Source of the DNA: a virus
Virus record (IMG/VR): IMGVR_UViG_3300006113_000004
Strand: one strand, 5' to 3'
Length of the DNA stretch: 39,929 bases
In this document: positions 2,175 to 39,929 of the stretch, piece after piece
Position numbering within the stretch: position 1 is the first letter of the stretch
How the letters are laid out: each line of letters opens with the position of its first letter
Notes under the pieces: model-generated
Database searches by the model: none
The model's input: only the letters and a program-made list of their open reading frames with translations
Told to the model about the DNA's origin: nothing
Program-made: the position numbers and the translations under genes

Positions 2175-2178
2175 CTAA

Positions 2179-2562: not shown

Positions 2563-2563
2563 A

Positions 2564-3229: not shown

Positions 3230-3273
3230 GTGCCTCTCCTTGGCTCACCCTTGATATTAGGGCATTTCAGGGA

Positions 3274-4155: not shown

Positions 4156-4163
4156 GATGTTTC

Positions 4164-19700: not shown

Positions 19701-22700
19701 GCGGACGGGGGTTAACTTGCCCTTCCCAAGCCCCCACCAATGGTCGGGTTCGGTACGCGCCCACAAACGGGTGTCGTCTACCATCTCGTGCTTCAGAATG
19801 GAGTTGGTCAAGTAAGACTGAAGCATCGTGCCCCAGCCCATTCGGTAACCGTTGAGCAGGAGTTCGGAGATGGAGACTCGGAGCGCCCAGCCGTTACTTA
19901 ACAAAGCCATTGGGACGAAGAACTTGGATTGCGTGGCGTTCAGGAAGTCAACCGTGTGCTGCCAGTTGTTGCGGTAGTACGGGTCGCGCTGGCGTGCCTT
20001 TTCCATTTCGTTTGCGTAGTCCTTAGCGAAGTCTGCGCGGTCGTCAGCAACAATCCCACGGCGCTCTGCCATGTCGCGGGCGTACTGAAGGAAGTCCTCG
20101 CGTCCGAAGGTGGAAGAATCGGGAATGGTGCCGTTGAGCGCGGAGAGCAAAGTCTGGTTGGCTTCGTACTGCGCTTTGAGGGGTTCTGTAGAACGTAGTG
20201 CTATTTGTGCCTCTAGGCGAGCCTGTTCGTCAGTGACCTTCTGATAAACGGAAAGGAAACGCTCAGGGCTGGTGAGGTCTTTGTTCTTCAGCGTTCCGGC
20301 GAGGGTTTCGGCCAATCCCTTAATCTTGGTGTCAAAGGCTTCTTGATACGCCTTGGACATTCCCCTTACGTCCGTCGCCTCAACAATCTTTTTCCACGCG
20401 AACGATGCGTCTTTCACGTCAACCGAGGAATAGCGAATGACACGGGCCAGACTCTCAAAATCCTTGGCGGGCTGGGTCAGGTCTTTGGCGTCGGCGCTGG
20501 CAATAAGGGCTGCTTCGCGCATGGCTTTGGCAAGGTTCTTCACGTCACGCGCACGGGGCATGATGAGGGAACCTTTTTGGGTGTCGTCAATGGCGGCGTG
20601 AGCTCCGATTCCCTCGGACTCAGGGTTACCGAGTCGAGAGTAGAACTCACCCTCTGGCCCAGCAACGTAGGTGCCAACATCTCCACCGCGATCTTTACCC
20701 ACCAACGCGACGACGTTTTTAAAAACTTCGTTCTCTACGGCGGAGCCCATGAGGTCGAGGGTGGTCTTGGGGAGTCCGGCGCGAGCGAGGTTGTTGACAA
20801 TCATCGTCACGCAATTGGTAAATGCCTGCGTGTAGTCGTCGGGGTTCTTGGTCGCCAAGAGGAAGTCGCCCATTGACTTGACGGTTTCGTTCGGAACCAT
20901 CGCAAGTCGGGCAAGGTCCATCAACGGCCCGATGGCGGCAGGGTCGCCAGGAGTAACGTGGACGTTCTCGATTTTGGCTGTCAGTGTGTCAACCCACATT
21001 GACTCTTTGTAAAACTGACCGGCGAGTTTCCGCGCCCACACCGCACGCCAGCGAACATCGGCGTTGGCTGCGTAGAACGCTGCGCCATCGGGCTTGGCGT
21101 CGAAACGGTTTTCCTTAATGCCGTCCTGAAACGCTTTGGTGAACAGTTCGTCAGAGCCGAGGGCTTCGCCCAAGGTGGTTGCTTGGCGAACGATAGCGCC
21201 CTTCAGGACCGTTTTAAAACCACTCCACAATCCAATCTTGGGGGCGTCGGTGATGACGAGCCCGCGCCCGTCCGCAACTTTCGCCATTGTGTTGATTGTT
21301 TCGCGGTAAGCGGCGTAGACAGAGGGAAGGTCTTGGGCCTTGCCTAACTTCTGCGCGAGTTCGGGGCTGATCGTGCCGTTGAAGTGCGTGTAGATTTCTG
21401 ACGCGCTGTGGGTCGCCATGTAGTTGTAGGCGCGTTGGACGGCGGGGTATTGCTGAGCGGTGCGCTCAATGTCGTCGGCGCTGCGAATTCCCGTACCACC
21501 CCACCATTGACCAAGGCCACCAGCGAAGCCTTCGGTGCTTTTGGCGGTCTTAACAACCCCCAACCCAGCGGCCAAAGGGTCGGCGGCAAACGTGGTCAGG
21601 TACATCGTTCCCAGATTGTTGATGGGGTTGTAGAACTCGGAATTTGGACTCATCCCCAACATCTGCAACGCTTCACCAACTGCGGAGACGGGCTTGCCAT
21701 CTGCACCAATGACCGTGCCGTTCTTGGTCTGCTCCCAGAGGGCAGGGTCTTGGCCTTGTGCTTGGAGCGACGTGGCGACGTAGAACGAGTTGAGGGGGAC
21801 GTTACGACCGGGGCGGGAGATTACGTCGAGGGCTTTCATCGCTGGTCGGAGTGGAGCGGCAACGGTTTTGGCGGCGTTGATGGCGGCTTGGAACGCGGGG
21901 CTACGGTCGGCGCGACGAGCTGCTTGCGCGGCTTTGATTTCGTCCAGACGCTTTGCGCTGTCGGCTAGGCGTTGGGCGGCTTCACCTGCGGCGATCTTTT
22001 GTTCGTCGGTAAGGGCTTGACCGGCCTTCTGCGCGGCGTTGGCGGCGTCAACAACGGCTTGGTCACCGGCGAGCGCGGCTTCAGTTCCACCCTCGGCTGC
22101 GGTCGTGGCACCGTCTGAAATAACTGCGCCGGCGATGGCAGGAATGGCTTGGCCCAATGCGTAGGCATACCCGTGTTGACGGACCATAGATTCTTCGTAA
22201 GCAAGAATGTGGTTCGGCATATTGAGAACCGACTTGTCGCTGAACGGGTTGACGTTTTCGCCAAGATTTGTAGTGGTGTGCCACAGGTCTTTGTAGCCCG
22301 CCGTTCCGTGACCGCCCAAGAGTTCATTGGCGGAGATGCCGATTCGGTTGACCGCGTTCGCGCCTGAAGTAACGATTCCTGAAACGGCGTTGTAAGCGCC
22401 CTTGCCTACGTCTGAAAGAGTGCTGGTGATATCCCCCCAGAGTCCAGGGCGAGGGGCGTTGATCTTGGCCGCTGCCGCCGCGTTCACTTTGGGGTCGCCC
22501 GAACACGCGTTGAGACGCTCGGCTGCGGTGGTGGCGTACTTCAGCGCAAGGGCGGTTTGCTCAGGGTTGGTGTTGATAGATTGCGCGAGGGCCAGAACCG
22601 ATTGAGGGTCTTTCACCAAAAAAGGGTTGGTTTGCGCGATGCCCGTGATTTTCTGCTGAAGGCTGGTGGAGAGGTCGTTGTACGACTCCGTACCGGGGAA

Positions 22701-22754
22701 AGCCGCGATGGAATCGTTGCCGGTGTACGCAGGAAGGCCGGTGGGTTCAGCCAT
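16722..22754 (-). CDS. Giant virion-associated protein (2010 aa), function unknown. Candidate internal/ejected protein
   Basis: A single uninterrupted 6-kb ORF between the portal-proximal genes and the scaffold. It is mostly helical-looking and Ala-rich at the N-terminus. I could see no polymerase, protease or lysozyme motif. Confidence 0.9.
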   Translation of the reverse strand: MAEPTGLPAYTGNDSIAAFPGTESYNDLSTSLQQKITGIAQTNPFLVKDPQSVLALAQSINTNPEQTALALKYATTAAERLNACSGDPKVNAAAAAKINAPRPGLWGDITSTLSDVGKGAYNAVSGIVTSGANAVNRIGISANELLGGHGTAGYKDLWHTTTNLGENVNPFSDKSVLNMPNHILAYEESMVRQHGYAYALGQAIPAIAGAVISDGATTAAEGGTEAALAGDQAVVDAANAAQKAGQALTDEQKIAAGEAAQRLADSAKRLDEIKAAQAARRADRSPAFQAAINAAKTVAAPLRPAMKALDVISRPGRNVPLNSFYVATSLQAQGQDPALWEQTKNGTVIGADGKPVSAVGEALQMLGMSPNSEFYNPINNLGTMYLTTFAADPLAAGLGVVKTAKSTEGFAGGLGQWWGGTGIRSADDIERTAQQYPAVQRAYNYMATHSASEIYTHFNGTISPELAQKLGKAQDLPSVYAAYRETINTMAKVADGRGLVITDAPKIGLWSGFKTVLKGAIVRQATTLGEALGSDELFTKAFQDGIKENRFDAKPDGAAFYAANADVRWRAVWARKLAGQFYKESMWVDTLTAKIENVHVTPGDPAAIGPLMDLARLAMVPNETVKSMGDFLLATKNPDDYTQAFTNCVTMIVNNLARAGLPKTTLDLMGSAVENEVFKNVVALVGKDRGGDVGTYVAGPEGEFYSRLGNPESEGIGAHAAIDDTQKGSLIMPRARDVKNLAKAMREAALIASADAKDLTQPAKDFESLARVIRYSSVDVKDASFAWKKIVEATDVRGMSKAYQEAFDTKIKGLAETLAGTLKNKDLTSPERFLSVYQKVTDEQARLEAQIALRSTEPLKAQYEANQTLLSALNGTIPDSSTFGREDFLQYARDMAERRGIVADDRADFAKDYANEMEKARQRDPYYRNNWQHTVDFLNATQSKFFVPMALLSNGWALRVSISELLLNGYRMGWGTMLQSYLTNSILKHEMVDDTRLWARTEPDHWWGLGKGKLTPVRDIPENASLLIKSNNLKARAVRVVRDIVAGSLLGIEERLLEGYNEAERLRMIDHTVSTVMRHKGYMPMDVHQVEGAIYDPGLLNQRIADKYVDIDPSGRIGILKASRTGQYVPVSLGQNGYVAGLRDALLRQGTSELKAPLYSHIYDKTLNRGLDEIEKGLNTNPDKMLNAATKHVEQYYKGLPNLTELLQKDPKFSFRKLTRDLLQEKKPSGALEEFVLGLGAKTLNSQAEKQLLMAELQGIAENKLRSLTPSELAAYRRSELTLLREGETDPIKGWAEALAYDSIHHVSGFSPVRDAEGISKPVFHGTLIRQTTNVDNVKSVQSIAEEVKAMGDTAPVNIPTRGFEAYHALQAGTRTNLIQDISRYGHERILGPIVNNLSRDPIWAHEFHVQMELREPMIAAGVISREQAEAEAEYKAVMNMSQFVHNPKDKLVFERNMRVAAPFYFAQNQAYRRFFRLLGDNPAAAERYMKMCLALTNYVAGHTQNGQTPSLYIPGSTYLTGVVGKIFGFNGVVPDIGLAASPTSINTVVPTGSSTGTDMFGTFARPSFGPVVDIPLKFAHEHFFQNNEFVDKVYRDFLGPVGSQTSIWDDVVPNSTARALFTIAESPLKTNTALLSTQLSVMKSTLSELYAKMYDEEYAKDAQTYINQGIPQSQLVQLIRANADAKFVNFFQGETNSAEAQKFLDAMHSQALALYILKSAVNASSPVAISTMERFSQEPKLQAILNQKNKDGSPKYTVSEGLDLFAQQHPDHLLDLVTKTSGSYESYPETTAALSFLTQYRGVVQKYPYGSAMLIPQTGQYSSAAYQLETSMGLRTLDTPEEYLRSILTSIGDDYYYNYLRPMAMDAPGGSQTYSDGTIGLSYEGQKSLTTMAQTYAKQSNPTWGQYGSVINPTAKSSVAFQAFDNVKAMLNDPKATPLFGGNKAMYAQLVNYTEQFQQLLQTATPAEAGNLRPEWYDYCTNLAQSPEAKPAAYFITSVMRRLGTKAGL

Positions 22755-23223: not shown

Positions 23224-25146
23224 CTAAGCACCAACGGGTACGGCGCTACCCATAGAAGCGGTTGCTGGGCCGGTGGCTGGCATATTGCTAGTCAACATGG
23301 GGGCTTTGCCTGCGGTGGCAGGGTGGGCGGACGCTAACAAGGAAACAAGGTCGGGCGGTCCTTGCGCTCCCTGCGGTGCCGGTGCGCTCGTGGGCTGCGT
23401 CGGGTCAAGTCCAGGCTGGGCTTCGGAAGAACCGGCCTGCTCTTGCTGGGCTTGGGCTTGGGCCGCTTGCTGCTTCTGAACATCTTTTTGGACCTGCTGA
23501 ACGACCGCTTCAATGGGTTCGCCCTTCAACCTTCCTTCGATGATTTGTGCAATTTCGTGAGGGGCGATCTGGCCCTGAGCCGCTTGCTGGTCAAGAGAGT
23601 CCATCAACGACTTTCGCAATTTCTCAATCTCAATCTTTTCGATTTCGGCGCGAGCGTCCTTAATCATCGGGTCGGCTTCCATCGCGGTCTGCTGGCTCAT
23701 CAACCCACCGCCGTACTTCTGAGCGAGCATGATCGTAAGCCCCTGCGCGTCGGTTCCGGCCATCGCGTACTCCACTTTGGAGTAGGTCATGGTAAAGAGT
23801 TCGTTCGGAACGTAGTCGCCTGGGCCCTCGATCTTCCCACTCTTGGGAATGAAGAACATGGACGGCTCGTCGCCGTAGTAGGACTTCATAATCCGACACG
23901 CGATTTCGTTCTCTTGCTCAAACGAATTGGCGAGAATGGTTTGGTCCTCTTGGATTCGTCCGTCAACCGTCGCGCCAAGAATATCCTGCCCTCGTCGTCC
24001 GGTGCGAATGTTGGACGCGGACTCTGCACCCCAGTCGGCAGGGACTCCACCGTTGGAACGCTGATTGGCTTCCAAGCGGTCCATCATCTGCATGGCGTCC
24101 TGTGGGCCGGGGTTGTGGATCGTCTGAAGTTGGGCGTTTTGGATTTCACCGATAATGCCGCGCTTGCCGTCCGCGTGAACAATGATGTTCGGCGGGGCAA
24201 TGGCGTTGGGGGTTCCAACCGCCCACTGGTCGTTAAACACGTTGTCAACAATGGCGATGGTGGAGAGTGCCATGAGCTTGCTTTGCATCATGTACATTCC
24301 GATCATCTGGTCAAACTGACCCGCGATTCGGTCAAGGGTAATCCGACCCGCAAAAACAACGGGGCAGACTTCGGCCTTGTTGACAATACGCATCAGAAGT
24401 TCGCACGAACTGTAGCCCTGAACGTTCGGGTCGTCCTTGTAGTTTCTACGTCCAGGGGGGTCTTGGCCCACGACAACCAAAACGTGTTCGCGGTCGTCAA
24501 CGTACTCCAAGACTTTGAATTCCGTAGTGTCGTTGAACTGCCGCCCCTTGTAAAGACGCTGAGCCGCGCCGGGGTAATTAGCTTGCAACCAACCGAGGGT
24601 GCGCTTGTCAGTAAAGATGCAGTTCTCAGGGTTGACGCCAAGGTGTTCGCTCATGCTCGATGGGAACGCCGTCAAAGGATTGCGGACGCGCCAGTGCGGA
24701 ATCCGGCGCTTGTCGGTCGGGTCGAGGGAAATGGGGGAAAGCGAAGCACAGGTCGAACCGTAGGCGGAAAGGTGGCGAGCCCTGCGACGGGTCTGCATAT
24801 CCCACTTGTTCATGTCCCACCAGCCAAGGTTTGCGTTGCGGCGGTTGTCGGCGGCTTGGTCGTGGCCCTTAAATCCGGGGCGGAAACTTGGATACCAAAT
24901 GTCCGGTCGGACAGACGCGACTCGCATGGAGTATTGGTCAATGCCCTGAGCAATCAGGTTGGGAACGGCGGATTGTTCCTCTTTGTCAAGTTCGGGGAGA
25001 TACACATGGGTGTCACCGTTGTAAGCATCGCGGACTTTCTCCATCGCCAAAATGCTCTTGCCGCGCTCCAACTGACGCTGCCGGTACTGAGAAAGAATTT
25101 CGCGGGCTGCTTCGTCGTCATTAAGCGGTAGGCGTGGGGTCCACAT
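23224..25146 (-). CDS. Portal protein, start refined to MWTPRLPL
   Basis: ~640 aa, directly downstream of the large terminase. The ATG at 25144-25146 shares one base with the terminase TGA (25146-25148). The C-terminal tail is Gln/Ala-rich. The call rests on position and size. Confidence 0.75.
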   Translation of the reverse strand: MWTPRLPLNDDEAAREILSQYRQRQLERGKSILAMEKVRDAYNGDTHVYLPELDKEEQSAVPNLIAQGIDQYSMRVASVRPDIWYPSFRPGFKGHDQAADNRRNANLGWWDMNKWDMQTRRRARHLSAYGSTCASLSPISLDPTDKRRIPHWRVRNPLTAFPSSMSEHLGVNPENCIFTDKRTLGWLQANYPGAAQRLYKGRQFNDTTEFKVLEYVDDREHVLVVVGQDPPGRRNYKDDPNVQGYSSCELLMRIVNKAEVCPVVFAGRITLDRIAGQFDQMIGMYMMQSKLMALSTIAIVDNVFNDQWAVGTPNAIAPPNIIVHADGKRGIIGEIQNAQLQTIHNPGPQDAMQMMDRLEANQRSNGGVPADWGAESASNIRTGRRGQDILGATVDGRIQEDQTILANSFEQENEIACRIMKSYYGDEPSMFFIPKSGKIEGPGDYVPNELFTMTYSKVEYAMAGTDAQGLTIMLAQKYGGGLMSQQTAMEADPMIKDARAEIEKIEIEKLRKSLMDSLDQQAAQGQIAPHEIAQIIEGRLKGEPIEAVVQQVQKDVQKQQAAQAQAQQEQAGSSEAQPGLDPTQPTSAPAPQGAQGPPDLVSLLASAHPATAGKAPMLTSNMPATGPATASMGSAVPVGA

Positions 25147-27098
25147 CAGGCAATCCTCTGTCGTTGTTGTAACCAACTAGGCCGAGTGGCCGCCCGTACT
25201 TCGCGCACTCTAGTTCTTATATTAGGCAAGTTCCACTCAAAAAACCACTGAGCCATCACGCAGTCGTCAGTTCGCATACCGCCGACTCCGTATTTGGTCA
25301 CTTCGTCAATGAGTTTAATGCTGGAAGTTGCCCCGCGTCCTTTGAGGGGAAGATTGACTTTCCCATCTCGATACAGCGGTCCAAGGGATTCTACACCGTA
25401 ATCACGGTCAGCCTTGTTTGCTCCCGTGGTGTGGGGGGTGACTTCAACGTTGTGCCTCAAAGTCCATTGTTTCATTGAGCTCGTCTGCAAGAAGAACTTG
25501 GCGGCGGCGTTTTGCTCAAAAATCCATCGCTGGATAGGGAACCCTAGACGGGTGGAGCGAACTTGCCATTCTTCCGCGAGGCCGGTGAAGGTGCTGGTGT
25601 TGAGGTCAAAGTCAAGAAATTCGGGGGCTTCCATCTTTGCGCGGTGCAGGGCAATTAGATACCTCATGTCGGTCGGCTTGTGATACACCCACACTTGGCA
25701 GGACCAATACATCGCTGGGGAAGGGTCCACCGAACCGACGATCAAACACTCTTGGACGGGGAGCATGGACCCGTCTGCCTTCTTGGGCCATTCCCATTCG
25801 TCGCGGTCGTAGTCAACGCATTTGGTCGGGTGGCCCTGCTGCCCGTACACCCACGCCGGATTGACCAAGGTTTGTGTCTGGGCTATGTCCTCTTGCTGGT
25901 AGATGACTTGGAAACGTTCGGAACGGTTGGTCATCAAACTTTGGATTTTGCGCCACGTCAATCGTTTGGGGGAAAGCAGACAGCCCTTCGGGTACGGCTC
26001 GGCGGAGTAAGCGTGGGAACCCTCGGTGCATTTTTCTTCGTAATGCGCTCGGTAAATAATGTGCTTGTACTTAGGCACCATCGCCGCGTCCTCTAAAGCT
26101 TCGGGGTCCTCGTCGTCGGGCACGTCATCAAGGGGGCGTTGCATATCAAGCGCAAATCGGTACAGGTCGTCAGACGCGATTCTCTGGCCCACTAAAGCAA
26201 AGAGCCCACCTGGTTCCAGTCGCGCTTCCATCACGTCCTGAAAGTTGTTCTCTAGTTCTTCTTTGGCTTCGACGGTTCGGGTTTTGCGTGGGTCAACGAG
26301 GTCGTCCCAGAGCGAAACGTCAATACGCGAACCAATATAGGAAGTGTCCATGCCGTAGGCTTGAAGCGTGGGGTCCTTGTTGGTGATTGAGGCCCCGTCC
26401 AACTGCTCCACAATCAACGCGGATTTGGTCCACACATCTCGCTCAATGGGCTTGAACCTGCCAAAGTCCTGCGCGAGCGAAGCCTCAGCGTCAAGGGCCA
26501 AGCCCCTGCGCTTCATGTCAGACCTAGCCAACATGGGTTGAGTTGATTCTAGAATTCGCTTGGCTTCCGACAGCATCTTGTCGGCTTGGGTCTGGGTTAC
26601 CGAACCAAAAAGAATTCGTACCCCTCGGTCACGGCAGATACACCAGAGGGCAAAGTCGAGAAACAGAGCCGACTTTCCTGAACCCGGTGGGCAGTTGACG
26701 ACAACGTATTCTTCTTCTTCGGACTCCCTCAACTCCATGAGTTTAAGGATTGCTTCTTCCTGCCACGGAATAGGGACTCGCCCTAGATACCGTTGGCGGA
26801 AATAGCGCAGGTCAGACAGAGCGCGTTTGGCTTCTGGCCCCAACGCCTCATACGGCAGAGGGGGCTTGATGGCCTTTTCTTCTTTTTCCTGAATCTGTTT
26901 TTTGATAACAGACTCTTTGGTGGTGAACTTGGCCGACCCGTGTTCTTTGGCGTACTCCGCTATTTTGGCCTTGTTCATCCAATCCAAAGCGGTTTTGTAG
27001 GAAATGCCCGCTTGACGCGCTGCTTCCGCTTTAGTAAGGCCAGCGTTGATGCACTTGAAGAAAATGCGGCGCTTGTCCTCGGATGCGTAGTTGACCAT
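25146..27098 (-). CDS. terL: Terminase large subunit with a fused N-terminal HTH domain
   Basis: 650 aa. Walker A is 'NCPPGSGKSALF'. The N-terminal 'INAGLTKAEAARQAGISYKTALDWMNK' is a helix-turn-helix of the type usually seen in small terminases or transposase HTHs. Confidence 0.9.
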   Translation of the reverse strand: MVNYASEDKRRIFFKCINAGLTKAEAARQAGISYKTALDWMNKAKIAEYAKEHGSAKFTTKESVIKKQIQEKEEKAIKPPLPYEALGPEAKRALSDLRYFRQRYLGRVPIPWQEEAILKLMELRESEEEEYVVVNCPPGSGKSALFLDFALWCICRDRGVRILFGSVTQTQADKMLSEAKRILESTQPMLARSDMKRRGLALDAEASLAQDFGRFKPIERDVWTKSALIVEQLDGASITNKDPTLQAYGMDTSYIGSRIDVSLWDDLVDPRKTRTVEAKEELENNFQDVMEARLEPGGLFALVGQRIASDDLYRFALDMQRPLDDVPDDEDPEALEDAAMVPKYKHIIYRAHYEEKCTEGSHAYSAEPYPKGCLLSPKRLTWRKIQSLMTNRSERFQVIYQQEDIAQTQTLVNPAWVYGQQGHPTKCVDYDRDEWEWPKKADGSMLPVQECLIVGSVDPSPAMYWSCQVWVYHKPTDMRYLIALHRAKMEAPEFLDFDLNTSTFTGLAEEWQVRSTRLGFPIQRWIFEQNAAAKFFLQTSSMKQWTLRHNVEVTPHTTGANKADRDYGVESLGPLYRDGKVNLPLKGRGATSSIKLIDEVTKYGVGGMRTDDCVMAQWFFEWNLPNIRTRVREVRAATRPSWLQQRQRIA

Positions 27099-27469
27099 TA
27101 CAACTTCAGGTCAGGGCTCCCCGTGACCGGCGTAGCCGAAGTGCCGTCAGGGGTTGAGACGCTGCCAGTGAGGTCGCGCATCGAAGCTCCGATTTCGTCA
27201 ACCGCTTTAGCCGCTTCTGCGACAGGGGCAGGGACGACATTCTGATTTGCCAGAATCGCGTTTACGACCTTGCGCTCGTCCGAGAGTGCGGTCAAGACCT
27301 TGCCGGAAACGTGCAGGTGCAACGACTGAAGAACGCCGATGAGAGCGGTGGCGGCAATCACAACGATCTGCTGGACCGACTGTGACACATGGAATCCAGG
27401 GTGGACGACCGCAACCAAAGCGATGACACCAGCAAGGGCCGAGGAAACGTGGGTAGGAACATTCTTCAT
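27098..27469 (-). CDS. Membrane protein (2 TM), start refined to MKNVPTHV
   Basis: A strong SD (AAAGGAGAGAC) precedes the ATG at 27469. The TM segments are 'ALAGVIALVAVV' and 'IVVIAATALIGVL'. Its TAA shares one base with the terminase ATG. Confidence 0.7.
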   Translation of the reverse strand: MKNVPTHVSSALAGVIALVAVVHPGFHVSQSVQQIVVIAATALIGVLQSLHLHVSGKVLTALSDERKVVNAILANQNVVPAPVAEAAKAVDEIGASMRDLTGSVSTPDGTSATPVTGSPDLKL

Positions 27470-27523
27470 TGTCTCTCCTTTGACGTTTGTTACATTACAC
27501 GGTTTCCGCCCCATAATGCGAAA

Positions 27524-27542
27524 TGCCCCCCATAAGGGGGCA
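27524..27542 (-). terminator. GC-rich hairpin upstream of the structural operon (terminator or processing structure)
   Basis: TGCCCCC-cataa-GGGGGCA forms a 7-bp stem. On the minus strand it is followed by ATTTCGCATTAT. It lies between the tRNA region and the first structural gene. Confidence 0.35.
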
Positions 27543-28053
27543 ATCGCAGTCACCAGTGAGGGAGCAATGGAACGCTCACATCGTATCAGATGTTTAGTCC
27601 CATTTGCGTGCGTTGAGAGCAAAAATTGCTTTCTTCCGCAACGAGGGTGAGTTGGAGTTCTTCGCCGCCTTTAGTCGCGCCAGAGGAATCTTCTCATGCT
27701 CAGGGATGTGGAGTACTTCGTGCAGACTCCCGACTTTGCTGGGCTTGATCTTGATGGGCTTTGTCACGTTCTCTCTTTTCGGCTTCTAGACGGGCGACTT
27801 CTTTGGGGCTGACTTTTTTCTTCACCGGACAAGTGTAGCCGTGGCAGTAGAGTGGTTTTCGTGCATCTCGACCGCTACGGAGTGTGGGTGGGAAGTGACG
27901 TGGTGCGAAATGGAATTATCGGCTCCGCGCTGGTGATTGTTTTCGTGGTGTTAATCCACTTCTACACCAAAGGCCGGTGAGCGCAGCTATCGCAAAATCA
28001 GGCGTGTCTCAATATCCGGACATGGCGTGATGTACCAAAATCAGAACACCCCT

Positions 28054-28127
28054 TGGCCCCCACTACCGAGAGTCGAACTCGGTGTTACGGTTCCCGAAGG
28101 AATGGCAACGGCTCCCGGCCAGCAGGG
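28054..28127 (-). ncRNA. tRNA-like element without an anticodon loop (or a degenerate tRNA)
   Basis: The minus strand reads CCCTGCT-GG-CCGGGAGCCG..TTCC-TTCG-GGAA..-ACCGAG-TTCGACT-CTCGGT-AGTGGGG-G-CCA. It has a canonical T-arm with a TTCGACT loop. The 7-bp acceptor stem has two G-U pairs, which would be C-A mismatches on the other strand. CCA is encoded. The anticodon arm is replaced by a UUCG-capped hairpin. Confidence 0.35.
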
Positions 28128-28165
28128 TAAATCACCAGTTGCATACGCGCCATGCAACCAGCTAG

Positions 28166-28239
28166 TGGCGGATACGGGACTCGAACCCGTGACCTAGTGA
28201 GCATGAGTCACCCGCGCTACCAAACTGCGCCAATCCGCT
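28166..28239 (-). tRNA. tRNA-Met (anticodon CAT; could also be Ile2 if lysidinylated)
   Basis: Hand-folded cloverleaf. Acceptor AGCGGAT/ATCCGCC has an A1-C72 mismatch. U8 is present. The D stem is GCGC/GCGC. The anticodon stem is GGTGA/TCACT with loop CT-CAT-GC. The T arm is ACGGG-TTCGAGT-CCCGT. CCA is not encoded. Confidence 0.8.
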
Positions 28240-28248
28240 AAACAAATA

Positions 28249-28479
28249 TTACCGACCGAGACGGGCTTTGTCAAACATTTCTTGAACTCTGAGACGAGCT
28301 TCGGCCACGGCGGGGGAATCAGGAGTCTCGGAATAGTCTTTCTTCTTCGCCTTGGGGACAGTTTCCCTGGAACGAGGCACCCACCCCCCACACCGGAGAC
28401 AACGATTCCACTTCGCAGAAATCTTCACCGTCTTGTGATCGCACCATTCGCGGTACGGGGTTCCAAGTCGAGTAGCCAC
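28249..28479 (-). CDS. Possible small basic zinc-finger protein (76 aa, GTG start)
   Basis: The ORF lies directly upstream of the tRNA on the same strand. It carries 'CDH...CLRCGG'. There is no clear SD. A TTGCTT-17-TAGACA element ends 6 nt before the GTG, so the transcript could be leaderless. Coding status is uncertain. Confidence 0.4.
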   Translation of the reverse strand: MATRLGTPYREWCDHKTVKISAKWNRCLRCGGWVPRSRETVPKAKKKDYSETPDSPAVAEARLRVQEMFDKARLGR

Positions 28480-28659
28480 AAAGATTGTCTATCACCCCAC
28501 CCCCTCACAAGCAAGTCTTTTCAAAAACGTTATAGAACGTGCAAACACTGAGGATTGAGTCATCGTCAATTTTTTTCCTTGCCATTACTGAAGATTGAGA
28601 TTTGCTACAAAAAAGGGATAATTCCATAACGAAGAATCTTCAGACATAGAAAGAAAAAC

Positions 28660-28689
28660 TTGCAATGAGTTGACACGGGTGACTAGACT
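28660..28689 (+). promoter_or_regulatory. Candidate rightward promoter, TTGCAA-18-TAGACT, with an A-rich UP-like element
   Basis: The -35 TTGCAA is at 28660-28665 and the -10 TAGACT at 28684-28689. 'agaaagaaaaac' lies immediately upstream. It points into ~680 nt with no convincing ORF before the plus-strand cassette. Confidence 0.35.
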
Positions 28690-28989
28690 AGGCGGAGCAA
28701 CGCACGAGTGAGCGCAGAAGCGAACGACAACTACCTGCCGCCCTTTACACGCCAGCCTGACGGCGGCGAGTTACGGTTGCCGCTACCGCGCCGTTTCACG
28801 GCTTTGGTGTCTGGGGGAGTTCAAATCTGGGAGTCAGAGATTCTGGACCTGGAGTTACGAAGTACAAAGAGCGATCACAGTAACAAATGCGGTGATTGCA
28901 GATATGCAAATTACACATTGGTGTAGAGGGGATACCCACAGCGCAACACAAGCTGGCCTCGGCACACTACCGGTCAAAGCCGGTGAGAT

Positions 28990-29020
28990 TGTGGATAAGT
29001 TGTGGAAAACTTGTGGGAAA
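28990..29020 (+). promoter_or_regulatory. Array of three head-to-tail DnaA boxes with 11-bp phasing
   Basis: TGTGGATAA (28990-28998) is the exact complement of the consensus TTATCCACA. TGTGGAAAA (29001-29009) fits TTWTNCACA. TGTGGGAAA (29012-29020) has one mismatch. The starts are spaced exactly 11 and 11 bp apart. Confidence 0.5.
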
Positions 29021-29307
29021 AGGGGGGGTCTGAGAGAACGGAGCGATTCGCTTAGGCCCCCAGCCACGATGGTCACCCAAGGCCCTCACAACTTGACATA
29101 ACCTTGAAACCCAAGTCCCTGCTAATGATGCTGTCGATCTGGTCCTCACTACGTTATGTAAAGTGAGACTGATTCTCAATACCTATCCCTTGCAAACTAA
29201 AGTTCACACTTTGCAAACTATTGTTAACACCTGTGGGGGCTGCGTTATGTCAAGCTACCTAGGTGTCTGGTAGGTGGAAATTTCTCTCTCTGATGGTCCT
29301 TTGTGAC

Positions 29308-29335
29308 TTGGCACTCACCTAGTTATGTGTATACT
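29308..29335 (+). promoter_or_regulatory. Candidate promoter of the plus-strand cassette, TTGGCA-16-TATACT
   Basis: The -35 is at 29308-29313 and the -10 at 29330-29335, about 38 nt upstream of the ATG at 29373. It is overlapped by the CACCTAG and GTTATGT repeat motifs. Confidence 0.45.
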
Positions 29336-29372
29336 GAATAGGTGGCGACAATGCCAGTGAATAGGGGAGAAT

Positions 29373-29741
29373 ATGAGTATCGAAGAAATGAGAGCTGCGG
29401 TAAAGATCCTGGCTGATTCGCGGCGGGGCGCTATCGCGTTCTCGCTGCCCATTGTGTCAGGTGCTTACGGATTCGAGGAAGTGCGTGAGCGCATGGCGCA
29501 GAAAGTCACAGTTACGCGCAGGGCAACCATAAAAGAAGCCCTAAAAGATCAGGATTCCGTTCCGCTCACTGAGGCGCGTGGGATGACGGTCACAGTGAAG
29601 GGTTACGCGTACCGTGATTCCGGCGGGCGCGTGGTGATTCTGCGAGACGGGACCGCCACAGTTGATGGTAAGAAGATCAAGGTTCGTAAGGTGGTATCCG
29701 TTCTCTCCCCGCGTGAGATTCTGTCACTGGCGGCAGCATGA
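29373..29741 (+). CDS. Hypothetical protein (122 aa), first gene of the opposite-strand cassette
   Basis: ATG with a GGGGAGA SD. The N-terminal half is helical and the C-terminal half is beta-rich ('TVTVKGYAYRDSGGRVVILRDGTATVDGKKIKVRKV'). No motif recognised. Confidence 0.75.
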   Translation: MSIEEMRAAVKILADSRRGAIAFSLPIVSGAYGFEEVRERMAQKVTVTRRATIKEALKDQDSVPLTEARGMTVTVKGYAYRDSGGRVVILRDGTATVDGKKIKVRKVVSVLSPREILSLAAA

Positions 29742-29890
29742 ACGTTACATTCGGGATGGTCGCGGACCGGCTGAGTGATCTAGTCGCGGAGCTACGGGAG
29801 ATAGGCGTAGATTCGCCAGGGGTCGCCAACGTGGTCGAAACGTTGGACGGTATCCGCGAGGGGTGCGACTACCGGAGCGTGAACGGATGA
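29738..29890 (+). CDS. Small acidic protein (50 aa), not in the ORF track: MNVTFGMVADRLSDLVAELREIGVDSPGVANVVETLDGIREGCDYRSVNG
   Basis: Hand translation. It has ATGA overlaps at both ends (29738-29741 and 29887-29890), which couple it to the flanking genes. Confidence 0.55.
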   Translation: MNVTFGMVADRLSDLVAELREIGVDSPGVANVVETLDGIREGCDYRSVNG

Positions 29891-30084
29891 GAGAACATTT
29901 TTCAAGCGTTCTAGCGACGGTGGCGGCGGTGGTGGTCGAGTGCTTACTACTGCCCCACGTCCTCACTTTTGTGGCGTTGTTTGTCGCGTTCATGGCGTGG
30001 TGCGTGGCGTGGGCACTCATCCATGCTACGCTGACCTCCCTAGCGCGTTCTAGAGCCTTCAGGAAGGTTCCTACGCGGTGGTAG
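29887..30084 (+). CDS. Small 2-TM membrane protein (65 aa)
   Basis: An internal ATG of track ORF 29863-30084 is coupled by ATGA to the preceding micro-ORF. The hydrophobic segments are 'VLATVAAVVVECLLLPHVLTFVALFVAFMAWCVAWALI'. Confidence 0.6.
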   Translation: MREHFSSVLATVAAVVVECLLLPHVLTFVALFVAFMAWCVAWALIHATLTSLARSRAFRKVPTRW

Positions 30085-30091
30085 CCGCGTG

Positions 30092-30129
30092 GTGCTGGCA
30101 AGGTTTCTCCCCTGTTCCCTTGCCAGCGC
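30092..30129. terminator. Convergent-junction hairpin (bidirectional terminator candidate without a U-tract)
   Basis: GTGCTGGCAAGG (30092-30103) pairs with CCTTGCCAGCGC (30118-30129). The 12-bp stem has one G-U on the plus strand and a 14-nt loop. It starts 8 nt after the cassette stop and lies 80 nt from the end of the minus-strand array. Confidence 0.5.
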
Positions 30130-30209
30130 CACAGGGTTACCAACGATCAACACAATCGCGCATTTTCTGAACGCAGATCACAATAACCGCGCATTTTTAG
30201 AGCTAATTT

Positions 30210-36415: not shown

Positions 36416-37188
36416 TTCGTCACCTCGCGCAGTTCATATTGCTTGCCGTTGATTTCCACTATCGTTCCGGCGCACGTCGGTTCTTCCTTGACCGGCTCGA
36501 ACACTCCGTCTTTGACCAGTGTGATGTAATCGCCCACTTGAATTTCCGTGATGTTCCAATCGGGGCTCTTGGTAGCAAACGCCCAGCCCGAAACCATGCG
36601 GTGGTCGCCGGACACCCACGCATTGCCGGACACCCGCGCATCGCCGTGCACCCACGCATTGCCGGACACCTGCGCATTGCCGGACACCCGCGCATCGCCG
36701 TGCACCCACGCATTGCCGGACACCTGCGCATTGCCGGACACCCGAGCATCGCCGTGCACCCACGCATTGCCGGACACCTGCGCATTGCCGGACACCCGAG
36801 CATCGCCGTGCACCCACGCATTGCCGGACACCTGCGCATTGCCGGACACCCGAGCGTTGCCGGACACCCGAGCGTTGCCGAAAACCCACGCAGAGTCTTG
36901 GTCGCTCAGGTTCTTCTCTGACTCGACCAATCCTCCCTCGTCTCCCTTCTTGACCCCAAATCGCACGTCACGTTCAGCAACGATGCGGAACAGTGGCTTC
37001 CCGTTTGGGGTGACCAGATCGGTTTCGCGTAGTGAATACTTACTGTTCTTCATTTCTTTTTCCTTTGTCATTTCATTCTCCTTTGGTAGTGGTTTCCAGT
37101 TGATGCAAATTCCTTTAATGGTTGCGCTTTGTCGTTGGTGGGGGAGCAGGTGCATGGAAAACGGGTTGTCGCAGGTTCCAAGTGTCAT
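36412..37188 (-). CDS. Hexapeptide-repeat (beta-helix-like) protein
   Basis: 258 aa. It contains 16 consecutive hexads of the A-x-V-[SHF]-G-[ND] type (AWVFGN ARVSGN ... AWVSGD). The ATG at 37188 is coupled by ATGA. An alternative start at 37071 has a strong AAGGAGA SD. Confidence 0.8.
   Translation of the reverse strand: MTLGTCDNPFSMHLLPHQRQSATIKGICINWKPLPKENEMTKEKEMKNSKYSLRETDLVTPNGKPLFRIVAERDVRFGVKKGDEGGLVESEKNLSDQDSAWVFGNARVSGNARVSGNAQVSGNAWVHGDARVSGNAQVSGNAWVHGDARVSGNAQVSGNAWVHGDARVSGNAQVSGNAWVHGDARVSGNAWVSGDHRMVSGWAFATKSPDWNITEIQVGDYITLVKDGVFEPVKEEPTCAGTIVEINGKQYELREVTK
36604..36891. repeat. 18-bp tandem repeat x16, with a 54-bp higher-order unit x4
   Basis: Units such as attgccggacacctgcgc / attgccggacacccgcgc / atcgccgtgcacccacgc are read directly from the sequence. 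They are in frame with the CDS. Confidence 0.95.
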
Positions 37189-38166: not shown

Positions 38167-39008
38167 TTTGCCTTCCCCTCAATGTCCACTTCCACGCACT
38201 TGAGAATCTTGGCAACCTTGCACTTGTCTGAACTTCCGTCATATTCGGTGATTGTCACAATGTCGGCCACCGCAACCGTGCAAGCCACAAAACGGGTTGC
38301 CTCATTCATGCAGCGCAGAGCGTGAAAAGGGGTGGGGCATAGGTGGAGTCCGTCACCGCAGGAGTTTTCGGGGATCCACTTTTCGGGAACGGGCTTCGAG
38401 CCAGGGGAGTAATCCCATCCGTAGCCTGACTTAAAATTGTCGTCCACGGCCTTGAATAGAACCACCTTGCCTGACTTGGTAATCGGGATGCCGTGGTACT
38501 CCAACCAGCCTTGTGTGTCTCGCAGGTCAGGGCGTTCGATAATGACTCCACCCGTGATTTTTGCGGCCTTGCTCAATTTGTGTACGGCGACTCGATCACC
38601 AGCCGTGACCGTGGCGGAGTCGTAGGCCGTGACCGTGGCGGAGCCGTAGGCCGTGACCGTGGCGGAGCCGGTGGCCGTGACCGTGGCGGAGCCGTAGGCC
38701 GTGACCGTGGCGGAGCCGGTGGCCGTGACCGTGGCGGAGCCGGTGGCCGTGACCGTGGCGGAGTCGTAGGCCCTGACCGTGGCGGAGTCGTAGGCCGTGA
38801 CCGTGGCGGAGCCGGTGGCCGTGACCGTGGCGGAGTCGTAGGCCCTGACCGTGGCGGAGTCGTAGGCCCTGACCGTGGCGGAGTCGTAGGCCCTGACCGT
38901 GGCGGAGTCGGTCACTTCCCAATAGCCCTCACGGACTACGGGAATGTCACCGTCCTTGATGGCTTTGTCAAATTCCTTTTGAGTTTTGCACTCAACGTAC
39001 TTGTTCAT
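38163..39008 (-). CDS. Octapeptide-repeat protein with a conserved Cys-containing C-terminal domain
   Basis: 281 aa. It contains 13 tandem copies of [DG]SATV[RT]A[YT]. The C-terminal domain follows: 'VVLFKAVDDNFKSGYGWDYSPG...CGDGLHLCPTPFHAL'. Confidence 0.8.
   Translation of the reverse strand: MNKYVECKTQKEFDKAIKDGDIPVVREGYWEVTDSATVRAYDSATVRAYDSATVRAYDSATVTATGSATVTAYDSATVRAYDSATVTATGSATVTATGSATVTAYGSATVTATGSATVTAYGSATVTAYDSATVTAGDRVAVHKLSKAAKITGGVIIERPDLRDTQGWLEYHGIPITKSGKVVLFKAVDDNFKSGYGWDYSPGSKPVPEKWIPENSCGDGLHLCPTPFHALRCMNEATRFVACTVAVADIVTITEYDGSSDKCKVAKILKCVEVDIEGKAK
38601..38912. repeat. 24-bp tandem repeat, about 13 copies
   Basis: The unit is gaccgtggcggag[tc]cg[tg][at]ggcc[gc]t, read directly from the sequence. 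Only 4 positions vary, and the array is in frame. Confidence 0.95.
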
Positions 39009-39715: not shown

Positions 39716-39895
39716 CTAATTGGCGCGGTAGGTGTTTCTTTCTTGAAATTCTTTTGCGGCTTGGCGCAGAAGATTGTTGGTGTTCGTTCCTCGACGTTGG
39801 GCTTCTTGAACAAACCATTCCATATCTGCCGAATCGAGGTACAGAAGTTTCCCCTTGCGCTCCTGCATTGTCTTAGGACGGCCTACAGCTCTCAT
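39716..39895 (-). CDS. Ribbon-helix-helix (Arc/CopG-like) protein (59 aa), not in the ORF track: MRAVGRPKTMQERKGKLLYLDSADMEWFVQEAQRRGTNTNNLLRQAAKEFQERNTYRAN
   Basis: Hand translation. The 'GRPK...KL.YLD...W....A...G...N.L.RQA' layout fits a beta-strand followed by two helices. Its ATG overlaps the Rad52-like TGA (ATGA). Its first 86 nt are also present at window positions 1-86 because of the end overlap. Confidence 0.6.
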   Translation of the reverse strand: MRAVGRPKTMQERKGKLLYLDSADMEWFVQEAQRRGTNTNNLLRQAAKEFQERNTYRAN

Positions 39896-39929
39896 TCAAA
39901 CGGCCTTTCAGGGTCTTTCTCGTCGTTGC
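39810..39929. repeat. Terminal overlap, right copy, identical to 1-120
   Basis: Exact 120-nt match to the window start. Confidence 0.97.

Follow-up and report, generated by a model that had tools for sequence, protein, structure and literature searches.

The stretch between positions 27470 and 29372 consists of several elements rather than one, and the best reading of it, to which we give about an even chance, is a divergent control region with a replication origin that would depend on host DnaA. The window, that is, the whole 39,929-nt stretch of DNA analysed here, represents a closed phage genome of roughly 39.8 kb; it is circular, joined by an overlap of 120 nt in the assembly that lies away from 27470–29372. 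With moderate confidence, the stretch can be described as the hub from which a small siphovirus-like phage is controlled, situated where its early and late genes meet and composed as a mosaic of four kinds of element (Table 1). The phage encodes a WhiB gene, which suggests that its host is probably actinobacterial. Its relatives include the contigs L044 (90% amino acid identity in TerL and approximately 72% identity in DNA) and L001 (72% identity in TerL).

The left boundary of the stretch, 27469, is the ATG of a minus-strand 123-aa gene directly upstream of TerL, and the right boundary, 29373, is the ATG of a plus-strand 122-aa gene. When minus-strand ORFs were tiled, ORF-free stretches (no ORF ≥60 aa) were at most 229 nt everywhere outside 27623–29744. 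The gap reported in the initial annotation is therefore genuine and by far the largest in the genome, and its position just upstream of the terminase operon was confirmed by the start of the 123-aa gene, followed by TerL. The statement that it is gene-poor, with at most one doubtful ORF, was wrong for about 40% of its length, which is occupied by two conserved small genes and a tRNA cassette; the truly non-coding part is 28480–29372. Both transcription directions had been said to diverge here. Conserved candidate promoters do point each way, but the rightward branch is only a 0.7-kb, three-gene unit, and all genes outside it run leftward. The more general claim of a control region with cis-acting elements was supported.

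Table 1 Features in and around 27470–29372 (a point in the strand column means no strand assigned).
Feature	Positions	Strand	Details
TerL (large terminase)	25146–27098		phrog_38
Leader of the 123-aa/TerL late operon	27470–27517	−	SD-like GGAGAG 27473–27478; −10-like TAATGT 27492–27497; read from sequence
GC-rich hairpin	27518–27547	−	GCGAUUGCCCCC-UUAU-GGGGGGCAUUUCGC; between small-gene unit and late operon
41-aa small gene	27700–27825	−	VKKKVSPKEVARLEAEKRER...; collinear homologous ORFs in relatives
Window-specific spacer	27826–27999	.	contains hydrophobic plus-strand ORF 27852–27980 (42 aa), antisense to operon
Palindromic cassette end	28000–28053	.	common to L170 (blastn, 85% identity over 54 nt, both orientations match)
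tRNA-like element (TLE)	28048–28162	−	structured RNA, four helices; 82% identity to L170 1614–1731
tRNA-Met	28165–28239	−	anticodon CAT; ARAGORN; Rfam RF00005 60.7 bits (gathering score 29)
Candidate cassette promoter	28246–28274	−	TTGACA-17-TAATAT; 10/12 matches in promoter scan; tRNA 5' end 6 nt downstream
76-aa zinc-ribbon-like gene	28249–28479	−	motif C-x-H-x11-C-x2-C
Block A	28525–28640	.	hyper-conserved, AT-rich, non-coding; about 90–93% identity to L044 vs ~72–74% in flanking genes
13-mer, two copies	28547, 28587		ACTGARGATTGAG; in Block A; unique to this spot
T7 and A6 tracts	28570–28576, 28609–28614		in Block A
P_R1 (putative promoter)	28660–28689	+	TTGCAA-18-TAGACT; hexamers and spacing identical in L044
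Conserved non-coding core	28898–28986	.	~90 bp; conserved in window, L044 and L001
TGCAGA and palindrome	28911–28926 (palindrome)		TTACAC-ATTG-GTGTAG; within core
Weak inverted DnaA box	28932–28940		ATACCCACA; within core
CTCGGCA	28958–28964		within core
Hairpin	28969–28984		ACCGG-TCAAAG-CCGGT; within core
Three head-to-tail DnaA boxes	28990–29020	−	TGTGGATAA 28990, TGTGGAAAA 29001, TGTGGGAAA 29012; period 11 nt
Block G	29041–29058	.	GAGCGATTCGCTTAGGCC; flanks array; conserved in L044 after 14-nt indel
Lineage-specific spacer	29060–29300	.	does not align to L044
11-mer, three copies	29092 (−), 29153 (+), 29244 (+)		GTTATGTMAAG; in spacer 29060–29300
20-mer, two copies	29190, 29211		TTGCAAACTAAAGTTCACAC; in spacer 29060–29300
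P_R2 (putative promoter)	29308–29335	+	TTGGCA-16-TATACT; 10/12 matches in promoter scan; short 5'-UTR hairpin and SD follow
Rightward three-gene unit	29373–30084	+	122 aa, 50 aa and 65 aa (membrane-like); gene calls on identical contigs

When the core was aligned three ways, little consensus RNA structure emerged (−6 kcal/mol); therefore, its primary sequence is what is conserved. Local folding on its plus strand reached a z-score of −3.0. The adjoining DnaA boxes, read on the minus strand, are the 9-mers TTATCCACA, TTTTCCACA, and TTTCCCACA with 2 nt between them. Nowhere else in the genome is TTWTNCACA matched than at the first two boxes, although this consensus may not be that of the host. 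The 11-nt array was also detected by TRF, and L044 carries four perfect copies of TTTTCCACA in the same phase (353–394). Thus, the array that had been noticed initially was borne out as three phased boxes, two of them exact, with a conserved counterpart. In L001, the core was kept and no box array was seen in the available part of the contig; hence, the core rather than the boxes may be the essential element. The reading frame across Block G differs between the window and L044, so the block is non-coding.

Head-to-tail 9-mers matching TTWTNCACA with an 11-nt period were searched as a phased pattern. Bacterial genomes gave at least 120 matches, against about 0.07 expected by our estimate, and dnaA or dnaN was nearby (median 188 nt) in 62 of the 120 matches listed. 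At least 120 matches were also obtained in viral contigs of many kinds; none of those listed was near dnaA or dnaN, and they were enriched in long ORF-free gaps (53% vs 14% for gaps ≥300 nt). Rozgaja et al. (2011) reportedly described arrays in E. coli oriC whose 9-mers lie 2 bp apart. The box pattern of the phage is equivalent to such chromosomal oriC arrays in its 9-mers, orientation, and period. Unlike chromosomal oriC, the phage array comprises only three or four boxes, has neither dnaA nor dnaN adjacent, and lies between two promoters.

The most AT-rich 150-nt window of the genome is 28516–28665 (33% GC), which overlaps Block A. The sole open frame of Block A showed 2 synonymous and 8 non-synonymous codon changes, with differences by codon position of 2/4/5, and the block was unstructured as RNA (z about 0). 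An AT-rich block with a 9-bp inverted repeat had been noted here; both are present, but the right arm of the repeat was not conserved in L044. The block adjoins the putative rightward promoter P_R1, and P_R2 lies further right, before the three small plus-strand genes. At the P_R1 site, L001 reads TTGACA-17-TAGACT (as the reverse complement) despite diverged flanks, and P_R2 corresponds to TTGACA ... TATATC/TATCCT in L044. The putative promoter P_R1 was thus conserved in three lineages and P_R2 in two. Overall, the divergent promoter-like elements mentioned previously were recovered as five consensus matches, against 1.7 ± 1.3 expected.

On the basis of these elements, we propose that the core with its three (in L044, four) head-to-tail DnaA boxes, phased by one helical turn between P_R1 and P_R2, may serve as the origin. 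Host DnaA-ATP would form oligomers on the phased boxes in the way it does at oriC arrays, P_R1 transcription running through the core would aid duplex opening, and the host replisome would be loaded thereafter. A cluster of consensus boxes and an arrangement as at proven origins are both present. The phage encodes SSB, an exonuclease, a RusA-like resolvase, and an HNH protein. Pfam and PHROG scans of the early genes, several of whose products have no family, recognised no initiator, helicase, primase, or polymerase, which suggests that the phage needs the host DnaA and replisome; an unrecognised initiator could still be among the family-less early proteins. The same scans gave no Rep/initiator family for an iteron-type origin such as lambda ori or P1 oriR, a weak negative given the unannotated proteins. 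At the corresponding junction, distant relatives have perfect tandem iterons of their own. In addition, the cumulative GC skew has its maximum at about 29–31 kb although the flanking genes share one strand, a weak turn that could reflect differences in gene content. Neither an AT-rich unwinding element nor a DnaA-trio-like repeat was recognised directly beside the boxes, and direct reading revealed no trinucleotide repeat beside them. Block A is about 350 bp away, and an AT-rich stretch 70 bp to the right of the boxes was not conserved in L044.

In the left arm of actinobacteriophages such as mycobacteriophage L5, the genome end is followed by small genes, tRNAs, and then the terminase. In the phage, small genes and a tRNA likewise separate the terminase from a non-coding region that serves as control region or end, and its distant relative L009 has 24 tRNAs in the corresponding slot. 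It differs in showing neither DNA similarity nor close protein similarity to any cultured phage, and its assemblies are circular or cut at arbitrary places. Origins that use host DnaA include P1 oriR, RK2 oriV, pSC101, and F, and lambda ori is subject to transcriptional activation from pR. These resemble the present region in being intergenic cis elements with boxes or tandem repeats near an AT-rich block and a promoter reading across. They add iterons for a self-encoded initiator (RepA, TrfA, or lambda O), whereas neither an initiator gene nor a second iteron family was found here. Phage and plasmid origins that use host DnaA are among the subjects of PMC3017604.

The core could alternatively be a cos/pac site. 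Its palindrome and flanks, possibly with the 11-nt repeats as terminase 'R sites', would be recognised by an N-terminal helix-turn-helix of TerL, and the genome ends would lie about 1.4 kb upstream of TerL. A location just upstream of the terminase operon is typical of such sites; TerL residues 6–50 match the small-terminase HTH family phrog_4102, with no separate small terminase recognisable; and the nearest cultured TerL relatives, from Streptomyces phages, start TerL approximately 1.1 kb from the start of the record. Furthermore, the core was kept in three lineages sharing TerL at 72–90% while the surrounding DNA diverged, the palindrome is two-fold symmetric, as a nicking site would be, and Block A, being rich in A-tracts, might serve to bend the DNA. 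However, the overlap that closes the window is elsewhere, identical contigs are cut at three other positions, and the L044 and L001 contigs run straight through the palindrome, which is degraded in L001. A terminase-site repeat would match the 9-nt DnaA consensus exactly by chance with a probability of about 1e-3 (our estimate). We consider a packaging site unlikely.

A second alternative, also rather improbable in our judgement, accepts that the boxes bind host DnaA and assigns them a non-replicative purpose: control of the rightward promoters, which would couple phage development to the replication state of the host; titration of DnaA, as at the chromosomal locus datA of E. coli; or a membrane anchor or injection pause, which has been suggested for the DnaA boxes in the injection-stop (iss) region of phage T5. 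The boxes lie between the conserved promoters, with P_R1 300 nt to their left and P_R2 290 nt to their right, and no unwinding element was recognised directly beside them. Phased arrays are, moreover, common in viral contigs of many kinds. The iss region of T5-like phages offers a precedent: more than 1.6 kb of non-coding DNA with repeats and palindromes, better conserved than coding DNA, contains consensus and near-consensus DnaA boxes beside the first-expressed small genes (bioRxiv 10.1101/866236). The region described here is similarly long, non-coding, repeat-rich, and better conserved than coding DNA, with DnaA boxes near small genes. In T5-like phages, eight boxes are kept in a 1662-nt region that is not their origin, as pairs 3 nt apart in the long inverted repeats IRC/IRD within the terminal repeat (bioRxiv 10.1101/866236). 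The T5 model is itself a hypothesis, however, and T5 is an unrelated and much larger type of phage. An injection-stop region of the T5 type was rejected for the window: its boxes form a single head-to-tail triplet 2 nt apart, with no surrounding long inverted repeats and no known terminal repeat. In addition, for a phage with no initiator of its own, replicative use of DnaA would be more economical.

It is very improbable that the region encodes a large structured non-coding or decoy RNA, such as a long P_R1 transcript or a relative of GOLLD, ROOL, or HEARO. Transcription from P_R1 would cover approximately 670 nt that lack a conserved ORF in both the window and L044, the corresponding length in L001 being at least 400 nt; plus-strand 28800–28950 folds better than shuffled sequences (z to −3.0; z −2.2); and the TLE, although only 115 nt long, is a genuine structured RNA. 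Against this, Rfam scanning of both strands returned tRNA alone, whether at the gathering threshold or at E ≤ 1, so the large RNA candidate of the initial annotation did not hold up. The reported abundance of hairpins was not seen either: mean folding z-scores (−0.30 and −0.08) equalled those of the coding control (−0.19 and +0.16), and only two local minima stood out. Apart from the core, whose alignment shows conservation at the level of primary sequence, 28700–28890 and 29060–29300 were poorly or not conserved.

That the stretch is decayed coding sequence with no cis function, such as a frameshifted former gene, is scarcely credible: the spacers 27826–27999 and 29060–29300 are lineage-specific and unexplained, and L048 and L049 have genes in place of the latter, but the blocks in 28525–29058 are more conserved than the neighbouring genes and lack codon-position bias, Block G changes frame, and no ORF was conserved between the window and L044 across 28480–29372. 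The refuting condition named in the initial annotation, a conserved ORF spanning the region in homologous phages, did not hold for that part, in which no frame is kept. For the core, the conservation pattern already contradicts decay.

The tRNA cassette, about 420 nt in length, comprises tRNA-Met, the TLE, its own candidate promoter, and a terminal palindrome. L044 lacks it and has just 2 nt at the corresponding position. The unrelated viral contig L170 shares it at 82% identity, promoter included; there, TTGACT-17-TATAGT likewise stands 6 nt from the tRNA. The cassette is probably a self-contained, horizontally acquired unit inserted between the 76-aa and 41-aa genes, and it illustrates how a tRNA, a promoter, and an unclassified structured RNA may move jointly between unrelated phages. 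The tRNA-Met reported earlier was detected by both ARAGORN and Rfam. It has an unusual anticodon loop, CUCAUGC, identical in L170, and an A1.C72 mismatch. Bacterial initiator tRNA-fMet is characterised by a mismatch at 1:72, a run of three G:C pairs at the base of the anticodon stem, and A11:U24; with the anticodon stem GGUGA/UCACU and C:G at pair 11:24, the tRNA-Met was rejected as an initiator.

The TLE folds into a 12-bp hairpin (28134–28162), a closing stem (28119–28128 with 28048–28056), a long arm (28084–28109), and a T-arm-like hairpin (28066–28082, loop UUCGACU). Alignment with L170 revealed covarying pairs: 94.6% of cells were paired, against 32–43% with slid partners; both partners were substituted in five pairs and one partner in eight, and pairing was retained. 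Where the window has 'CCA', L170 has CUA, with a matching change of UGG to UAG; thus, these nucleotides pair within a helix and do not form a tRNA 3' end. The element is therefore a real structured RNA beside the tRNA, as the initial annotation implied, but not a tRNA: default ARAGORN gave none, RF00005 had no match at E ≤ 10 (171 nt), and the covarying pairs favour another fold, with four helices. ARAGORN called a tRNA-like structure only once its threshold was lowered, with a 43-nt 'intron' and mismatches. A tmRNA was also rejected (ARAGORN tmRNA search negative at default and 80% thresholds; no tmRNA match in Rfam). No Rfam family matched the TLE at E ≤ 10, and it appears to have no described counterpart. 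Phage tRNAs with altered anticodon loops are reported to escape tRNA-targeting defences (eLife 2023, PMC10264068). The tRNA-Met resembles these in its non-canonical loop and its location on a mobile cassette with its own promoter; it differs in having no known nuclease target and in its TLE companion.

Tentatively, we suggest a joint proposal in two parts: that the array belongs to a class of phage cis-elements that is widespread and essentially uncharacterised, namely oriC-mimicking phased arrays in long non-coding regions, and that the TLE represents a new mobile RNA family that accompanies a tRNA with a variant anticodon loop, acting, for instance, as a decoy or processing scaffold. If so, phages without their own initiator would start replication with, or capture, host DnaA through such arrays. 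Many small phages, including many actinophages, have no recognisable initiator, and how their DNA synthesis starts is largely unknown; an oriC-style array in the sole long non-coding region of such a genome is a concrete, testable candidate. The occurrence of the phased pattern in at least 120 viral contigs, with none by dnaA among the matches listed, takes the question beyond one genome.

The 76-aa ORF, initially called doubtful, proved to be a conserved gene. Its product showed 64% identity to that of L044 ORF 917–1135 and 34% to that of an L001 ORF, with C13, H15, C27, and C30 invariant among the three, and its reading frame had a third-codon-position bias (5/1/10 and 6/3/11). The ORF is annotated as a gene on JGI contigs (P0121); no Pfam family was found for the protein, and its AF2 model was of low confidence. 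The 41-aa ORF was conserved as well, with collinear homologues at 1138–1281 in L044 and 986–1111 in L001; over its first 22 codons, the window and L044 differed by 8/3/9 at the three codon positions, with six synonymous codon changes. The adjacent spacer 27826–27999 had no homologue in L044, L001, or L170.

These two genes probably form a leftward unit that ends in the terminator-like hairpin just before the 123-aa/TerL operon. Within the region, local folding was strongest in minus-strand 27500–27600 (z = −4.7), and L044 keeps the stem with a different loop, followed by UUUUCU; the hairpin looks like a terminator or attenuator. The −10-like TAATGT in the leader, replaced by TATCGT in L044 at an equal distance (21–22 nt) from the start codon, may be the promoter of the late operon.

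At the other end, the spacer 29060–29300 is replaced by other genes in L048 and L049. Its 11-mer occurs only here, in three copies against 0.62 expected, and the 11-mer and 20-mer repeats are possible operators. Most long-range repeat pairs in the stretch were single two-copy matches and probably due to chance. The rightward unit is the only plus-strand unit of the genome (relatives P0124 and P0125). Its 122-aa protein gave no family or fold match. The 50-aa ORF showed third-position bias in the plus frame between the window and L048 (4/3/11); thus, an overlapping 132-aa minus-strand ORF is probably spurious. Small genes, promoters, and a terminator before the terminase operon are ordinary phage genome organisation.

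The interval 27470-29372 is flanked by the start codons (ATG) of two genes, one of 123 aa on the minus strand (27469) and one of 122 aa on the plus strand (29373), and was described in the initial annotation as a 1.9-kb gene-poor control region. This long gap proved to be real and the only one in the genome, as tiling with minus-strand ORFs left gaps of at most 229 nt elsewhere. The tRNA-Met (ARAGORN and Rfam), the DnaA-box array, and the AT-rich block reported there were also recovered. A 9-bp inverted repeat was found in the window but was not conserved, its right arm being lost in the related contig L044. Overall, the observation was partly confirmed and its interpretation partly supported; most of what the region contains is usual for a phage genome.

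The window is a closed assembly, with positions 1-120 repeated exactly at 39810-39929. Contigs identical to it in JGI and ENA are cut elsewhere (window 33739, 29883, and 29239), and hence the 120-nt overlap arose in assembling a circular or concatemeric molecule and is not a terminal repeat. The breaks of two assemblies fall within 29239-29900, beside the hypervariable spacer. Nearly all genes are carried on the minus strand. Gene scans of the window recovered no family of integrases, initiators, helicases, primases, or polymerases. WhiB and distant matches of the large terminase (TerL) to Streptomyces phages point to an actinobacterial host. The TerL identity to Streptomyces and Weizmannia phages was only 22-30%; cultured phages gave no DNA-level match to the window. 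A TerL scan of IMG/VR and JGI metagenomes yielded 43 loci with 41-72% identity. The closest TerL relative, P0001 (90%), came from the protein database and is located on contig L044 (Logan SRR3657438), which spans the entire junction, while L001 (TerL 72%) spans the left two thirds. Two further contigs, L048 and L049, carry a 122-aa gene 90-93% identical to that of the window, but their upstream DNA differs.

Features in and around the gene-poor region
Feature	Position	Strand	Remarks
Major head protein	12972-14213	minus	
Portal-sized gene	23224-25176	minus	
TerL	25146-27098	minus	phrog_38
GC-rich hairpin	27518-27547		between 41-aa ORF and 123-aa gene; lowest folding z in the region, -4.7
41-aa ORF	27700-27825	minus	collinear homologues in L044 and L001
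tRNA-like element	28048-28162	minus	
tRNA-Met	28165-28239	minus	copy in L170 at 1730-1804 (minus)
76-aa zinc-ribbon-like gene	28249-28479	minus	homologous ORFs in L044 and L001
Block A	28525-28640		
P_R1	28660-28689	plus	TTGCAA-18-TAGACT, putative promoter; identical in L044
Conserved core	28898-28986		motif run kept in window, L044, and L001
DnaA-box-like 9-mers	28990, 29001, 29012		
Block G	29041-29058		conserved in L044 after 14-nt indel
Variable spacer	29060-29300		no alignment to L044; genes occupy the place in L048 and L049
P_R2		plus	TTGGCA-16-TATACT, putative promoter; conserved in L044
Exonuclease, HslV-like peptidase, SSB, RusA-like resolvase, HNH, WhiB-like regulator	30-35 kb part	minus	

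The array comprises three boxes in the window versus four perfect TTTTCCACA boxes in L044, with an 11-nt period in both. Single near-matches to the DnaA box were no commoner than chance in the window genome, and exact TTWTNCACA sites occurred only twice, adjacent and in phase. The pattern TGTGGAWAANNTGTGGAWAANNTGTGG was scanned in GTDB species genomes (596 Gb, with about 0.07 matches expected by chance according to our estimate), and at least 120 loci from very diverse phyla were found. DnaA and/or DnaN was detected with Pfam beside the array in seven of the eight bacterial loci checked, and tblastn placed dnaA or dnaN within the locus in 62 of the 120 bacterial matches listed, with a median distance of 188 nt to the array. 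The pattern thus marks out chromosomal origins. At least 120 viral loci of IMG/VR (L172-L291) also carried it. Among the viral matches listed, dnaA or dnaN was near the array in none of 120, 53% of the arrays, versus 14% of random positions, lay in stretches of 300 nt or more that contain no ORF, and 20 of 120 were no more than 150 nt from the end of a locus. The oriC-style array is a member of a widespread, unstudied class in viral contigs and deserves follow-up. In L044, a second 11-nt tandem array (CGTAGGGCTCT x2.8, 304-334), absent from the window, immediately adjoins the four DnaA boxes.

The truly non-coding part, 28480-29372, was compared with L044. The core of all three lineages contains TGCAGA, a CTACAC-N4-GTGTAG palindrome, TACCCAC, CTCGGCA, and GTCAAA. 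Viral contig pattern searches detected no extra copies of the conserved blocks. Block A was approximately 90% identical to L044, compared with 72-74% in the flanking genes. It lies inside the segment with the highest AT content in the genome and contains T7 and A6 tracts and two 13-mers, 40 nt apart, found nowhere else; its folding was no better than chance. Judged from its sequence, Block A may act at the level of DNA, as a promoter/operator, as bent DNA, or perhaps as a site of unwinding. A 40-aa ORF across it, the sole frame open in both genomes, was rejected, with eight of ten changed codons non-synonymous (two synonymous) and differences of 2/4/5 by codon position, without third-position bias. 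An ORF through the DnaA array, open in the window and L044, was also discarded, as the frame is lost after the array. The variable spacer contains one 11-mer three times, confined to the region.

P_R1 has a counterpart in L001 (TTGACA-17-TAGACT) amid diverged surroundings. Downstream of P_R2 is a plus-strand unit of three genes (122, 50, and 65 aa), the latter two of which were put at 29738-30084 by gene callers. A 132-aa minus-strand ORF at 29745-30143 is probably spurious, because comparison with L048 gave third-position bias (4/3/11) in the frame of the plus-strand 50-aa ORF.

The favoured reading, which we hold at about even odds, is that of a mosaic control region with a core that recruits host DnaA and acts as the origin of a phage without its own initiator. 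The conserved core would bind host DnaA, replication would start there, and transcription from P_R1 across the core would serve as an activator. A turn in cumulative GC skew falls at 29-31 kb though genes share one strand on both sides, and two distant relatives carry perfect tandem iterons, unrelated to DnaA boxes, at the analogous intergenic junction (L030 1207-1236, GTTGCCCTAAGT x2.5; L031 546-580, TGTTGCCATGATC x2.7); together these weakly back the origin. Counting against it, no unwinding element abuts the boxes, and L001 retains the core with no box array in the part covered by the contig.

Alternatively, the region could be a packaging site recognised by a TerL bearing a helix-turn-helix, which we regard as unlikely. 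Residues 6-50 of TerL match phrog_4102, a helix-turn-helix family of small terminases, and the window had no recognisable small terminase apart from TerL. The similarity of TerL to T7 gp19 in PDB (E = 0.0045) was too weak to serve as a clue to packaging type. The 123-aa protein upstream of TerL appears membrane-associated. Binding of DnaA for a non-replicative end, whether regulatory, titrating, or T5-like, likewise seems improbable. The literature surveyed offered essentially one comparable case, the injection-stop region of T5-like phages, which is non-coding and repeat-rich with eight DnaA boxes and whose proposed function is hypothetical (bioRxiv 10.1101/866236). A large ncRNA is very improbable: the many hairpins claimed initially did not stand out in sliding 100-nt folds (mean z -0.30 and -0.08 vs -0.19 and +0.16 in the coding control), local folding minima were limited to 27450-27650 and, on the plus strand, 28800-28950, and the core showed next to no consensus RNA structure across the three lineages. 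The RNA comparison of Blocks A-G covered two sequences. Decayed coding sequence is scarcely credible as the source of the gap; Block G is read in different frames in the window and L044 owing to the indel.

The left part holds a mobile tRNA-Met cassette with an unclassified structured RNA, which deserves follow-up. Its DNA recurs in L170, a viral contig unrelated in other respects (28239-28047 of the window vs L170 1804-1614, 82% identity), and in both a putative promoter ends 6 nt ahead of the tRNA (TTGACA-17-TAATAT and TTGACT-17-TATAGT, respectively). The anticodon loop CUCAUGC, identical in the L170 copy, has G37 and C38 in place of the usual A37 and A38, whereas the related tRNA-Met of L171 has the normal loop CCCAUAA. 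An A1.C72 mismatch is present, but other initiator features, including the anticodon-stem G:C pairs, are absent. The tRNA-like element gave no default ARAGORN call and no Rfam match even at E<=10. Its four helices are preserved between the window and L170, with 94.6% of cells paired versus 32-43% with slid partners. Both members differ in five pairs, two of them in the T-arm-like hairpin (CCGAG/CUCGG vs CGCAG/CUGCG), and eight one-sided changes retain pairing. In L170, CUA stands in place of the "CCA" of the window, with a covarying change from UGG to UAG; the "CCA" thus belongs to a closing helix. This covariation is suggestive of a four-helix structure, as predicted from the same two sequences. 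Viral contig pattern scans found no copy beyond that in L170, and a covariance model run over 36 sources recovered only its two training sequences. The idea that the tRNA-like 3' half is an integration site (attP) was rejected, since an integrase was not detected and the "CCA" sits in the covarying helix. In the distant relative L009 (TerL 45%), 24 consecutive tRNA genes (2089-4502) occupy the same slot upstream of the terminase operon as the single tRNA of the window.

The 76-aa ORF, initially called doubtful, is by its sequence pattern a real zinc-ribbon-like gene: it is conserved in L044 (64% identity) and L001 (34%), C13, H15, C27, and C30 are invariant, and differences pile up at the third position of codons (5/1/10 and 6/3/11). 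In L044, 2 nt separate the homologues of the 76-aa and 41-aa ORFs, versus 423 nt in the window, and the same slot in L001 holds a 70-aa ORF. Substitutions in the 41-aa ORF were coding-like (8/3/9 by codon position, with six synonymous codon changes). A 57-aa ORF at 27594-27767 was rejected; part of it lies over the conserved 41-aa ORF, neither L044 nor L001 has a counterpart, and it scored about 0 with a home-made Markov coding score of weak discrimination. The 123-aa, 122-aa, 76-aa, 57-aa, 41-aa, and other small ORFs had no Pfam or PHROG match. AF2 models of the 122-aa and 76-aa proteins were poor (pLDDT 59.7 and 62.3), and no fold in the PDB matched at E<=0.001. The GC-rich hairpin is retained in L044 with an altered loop and a U-rich tail, and we infer that it is a terminator or attenuator ahead of the late operon. 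A hydrophobic 42-aa ORF (27852-27980, plus; 26 aa from an internal GTG), antisense to the leftward operon in a window-specific spacer, resembles a type I toxin; a homologue search found none.

Elsewhere in the genome, a 2010-aa ORF (16722-22754, minus) is the second gene downstream from the portal-sized gene, after a 153-aa gene; it has no Pfam match and is kept in L044 (2000 aa). Two long in-frame tandem repeats were observed at 36607-36892 (18 nt x15.9), within a beta-solenoid/bactofilin-like 258-aa gene, and at 38602-38910 (24 nt x12.9), within a 281-aa gene (DUF7666).
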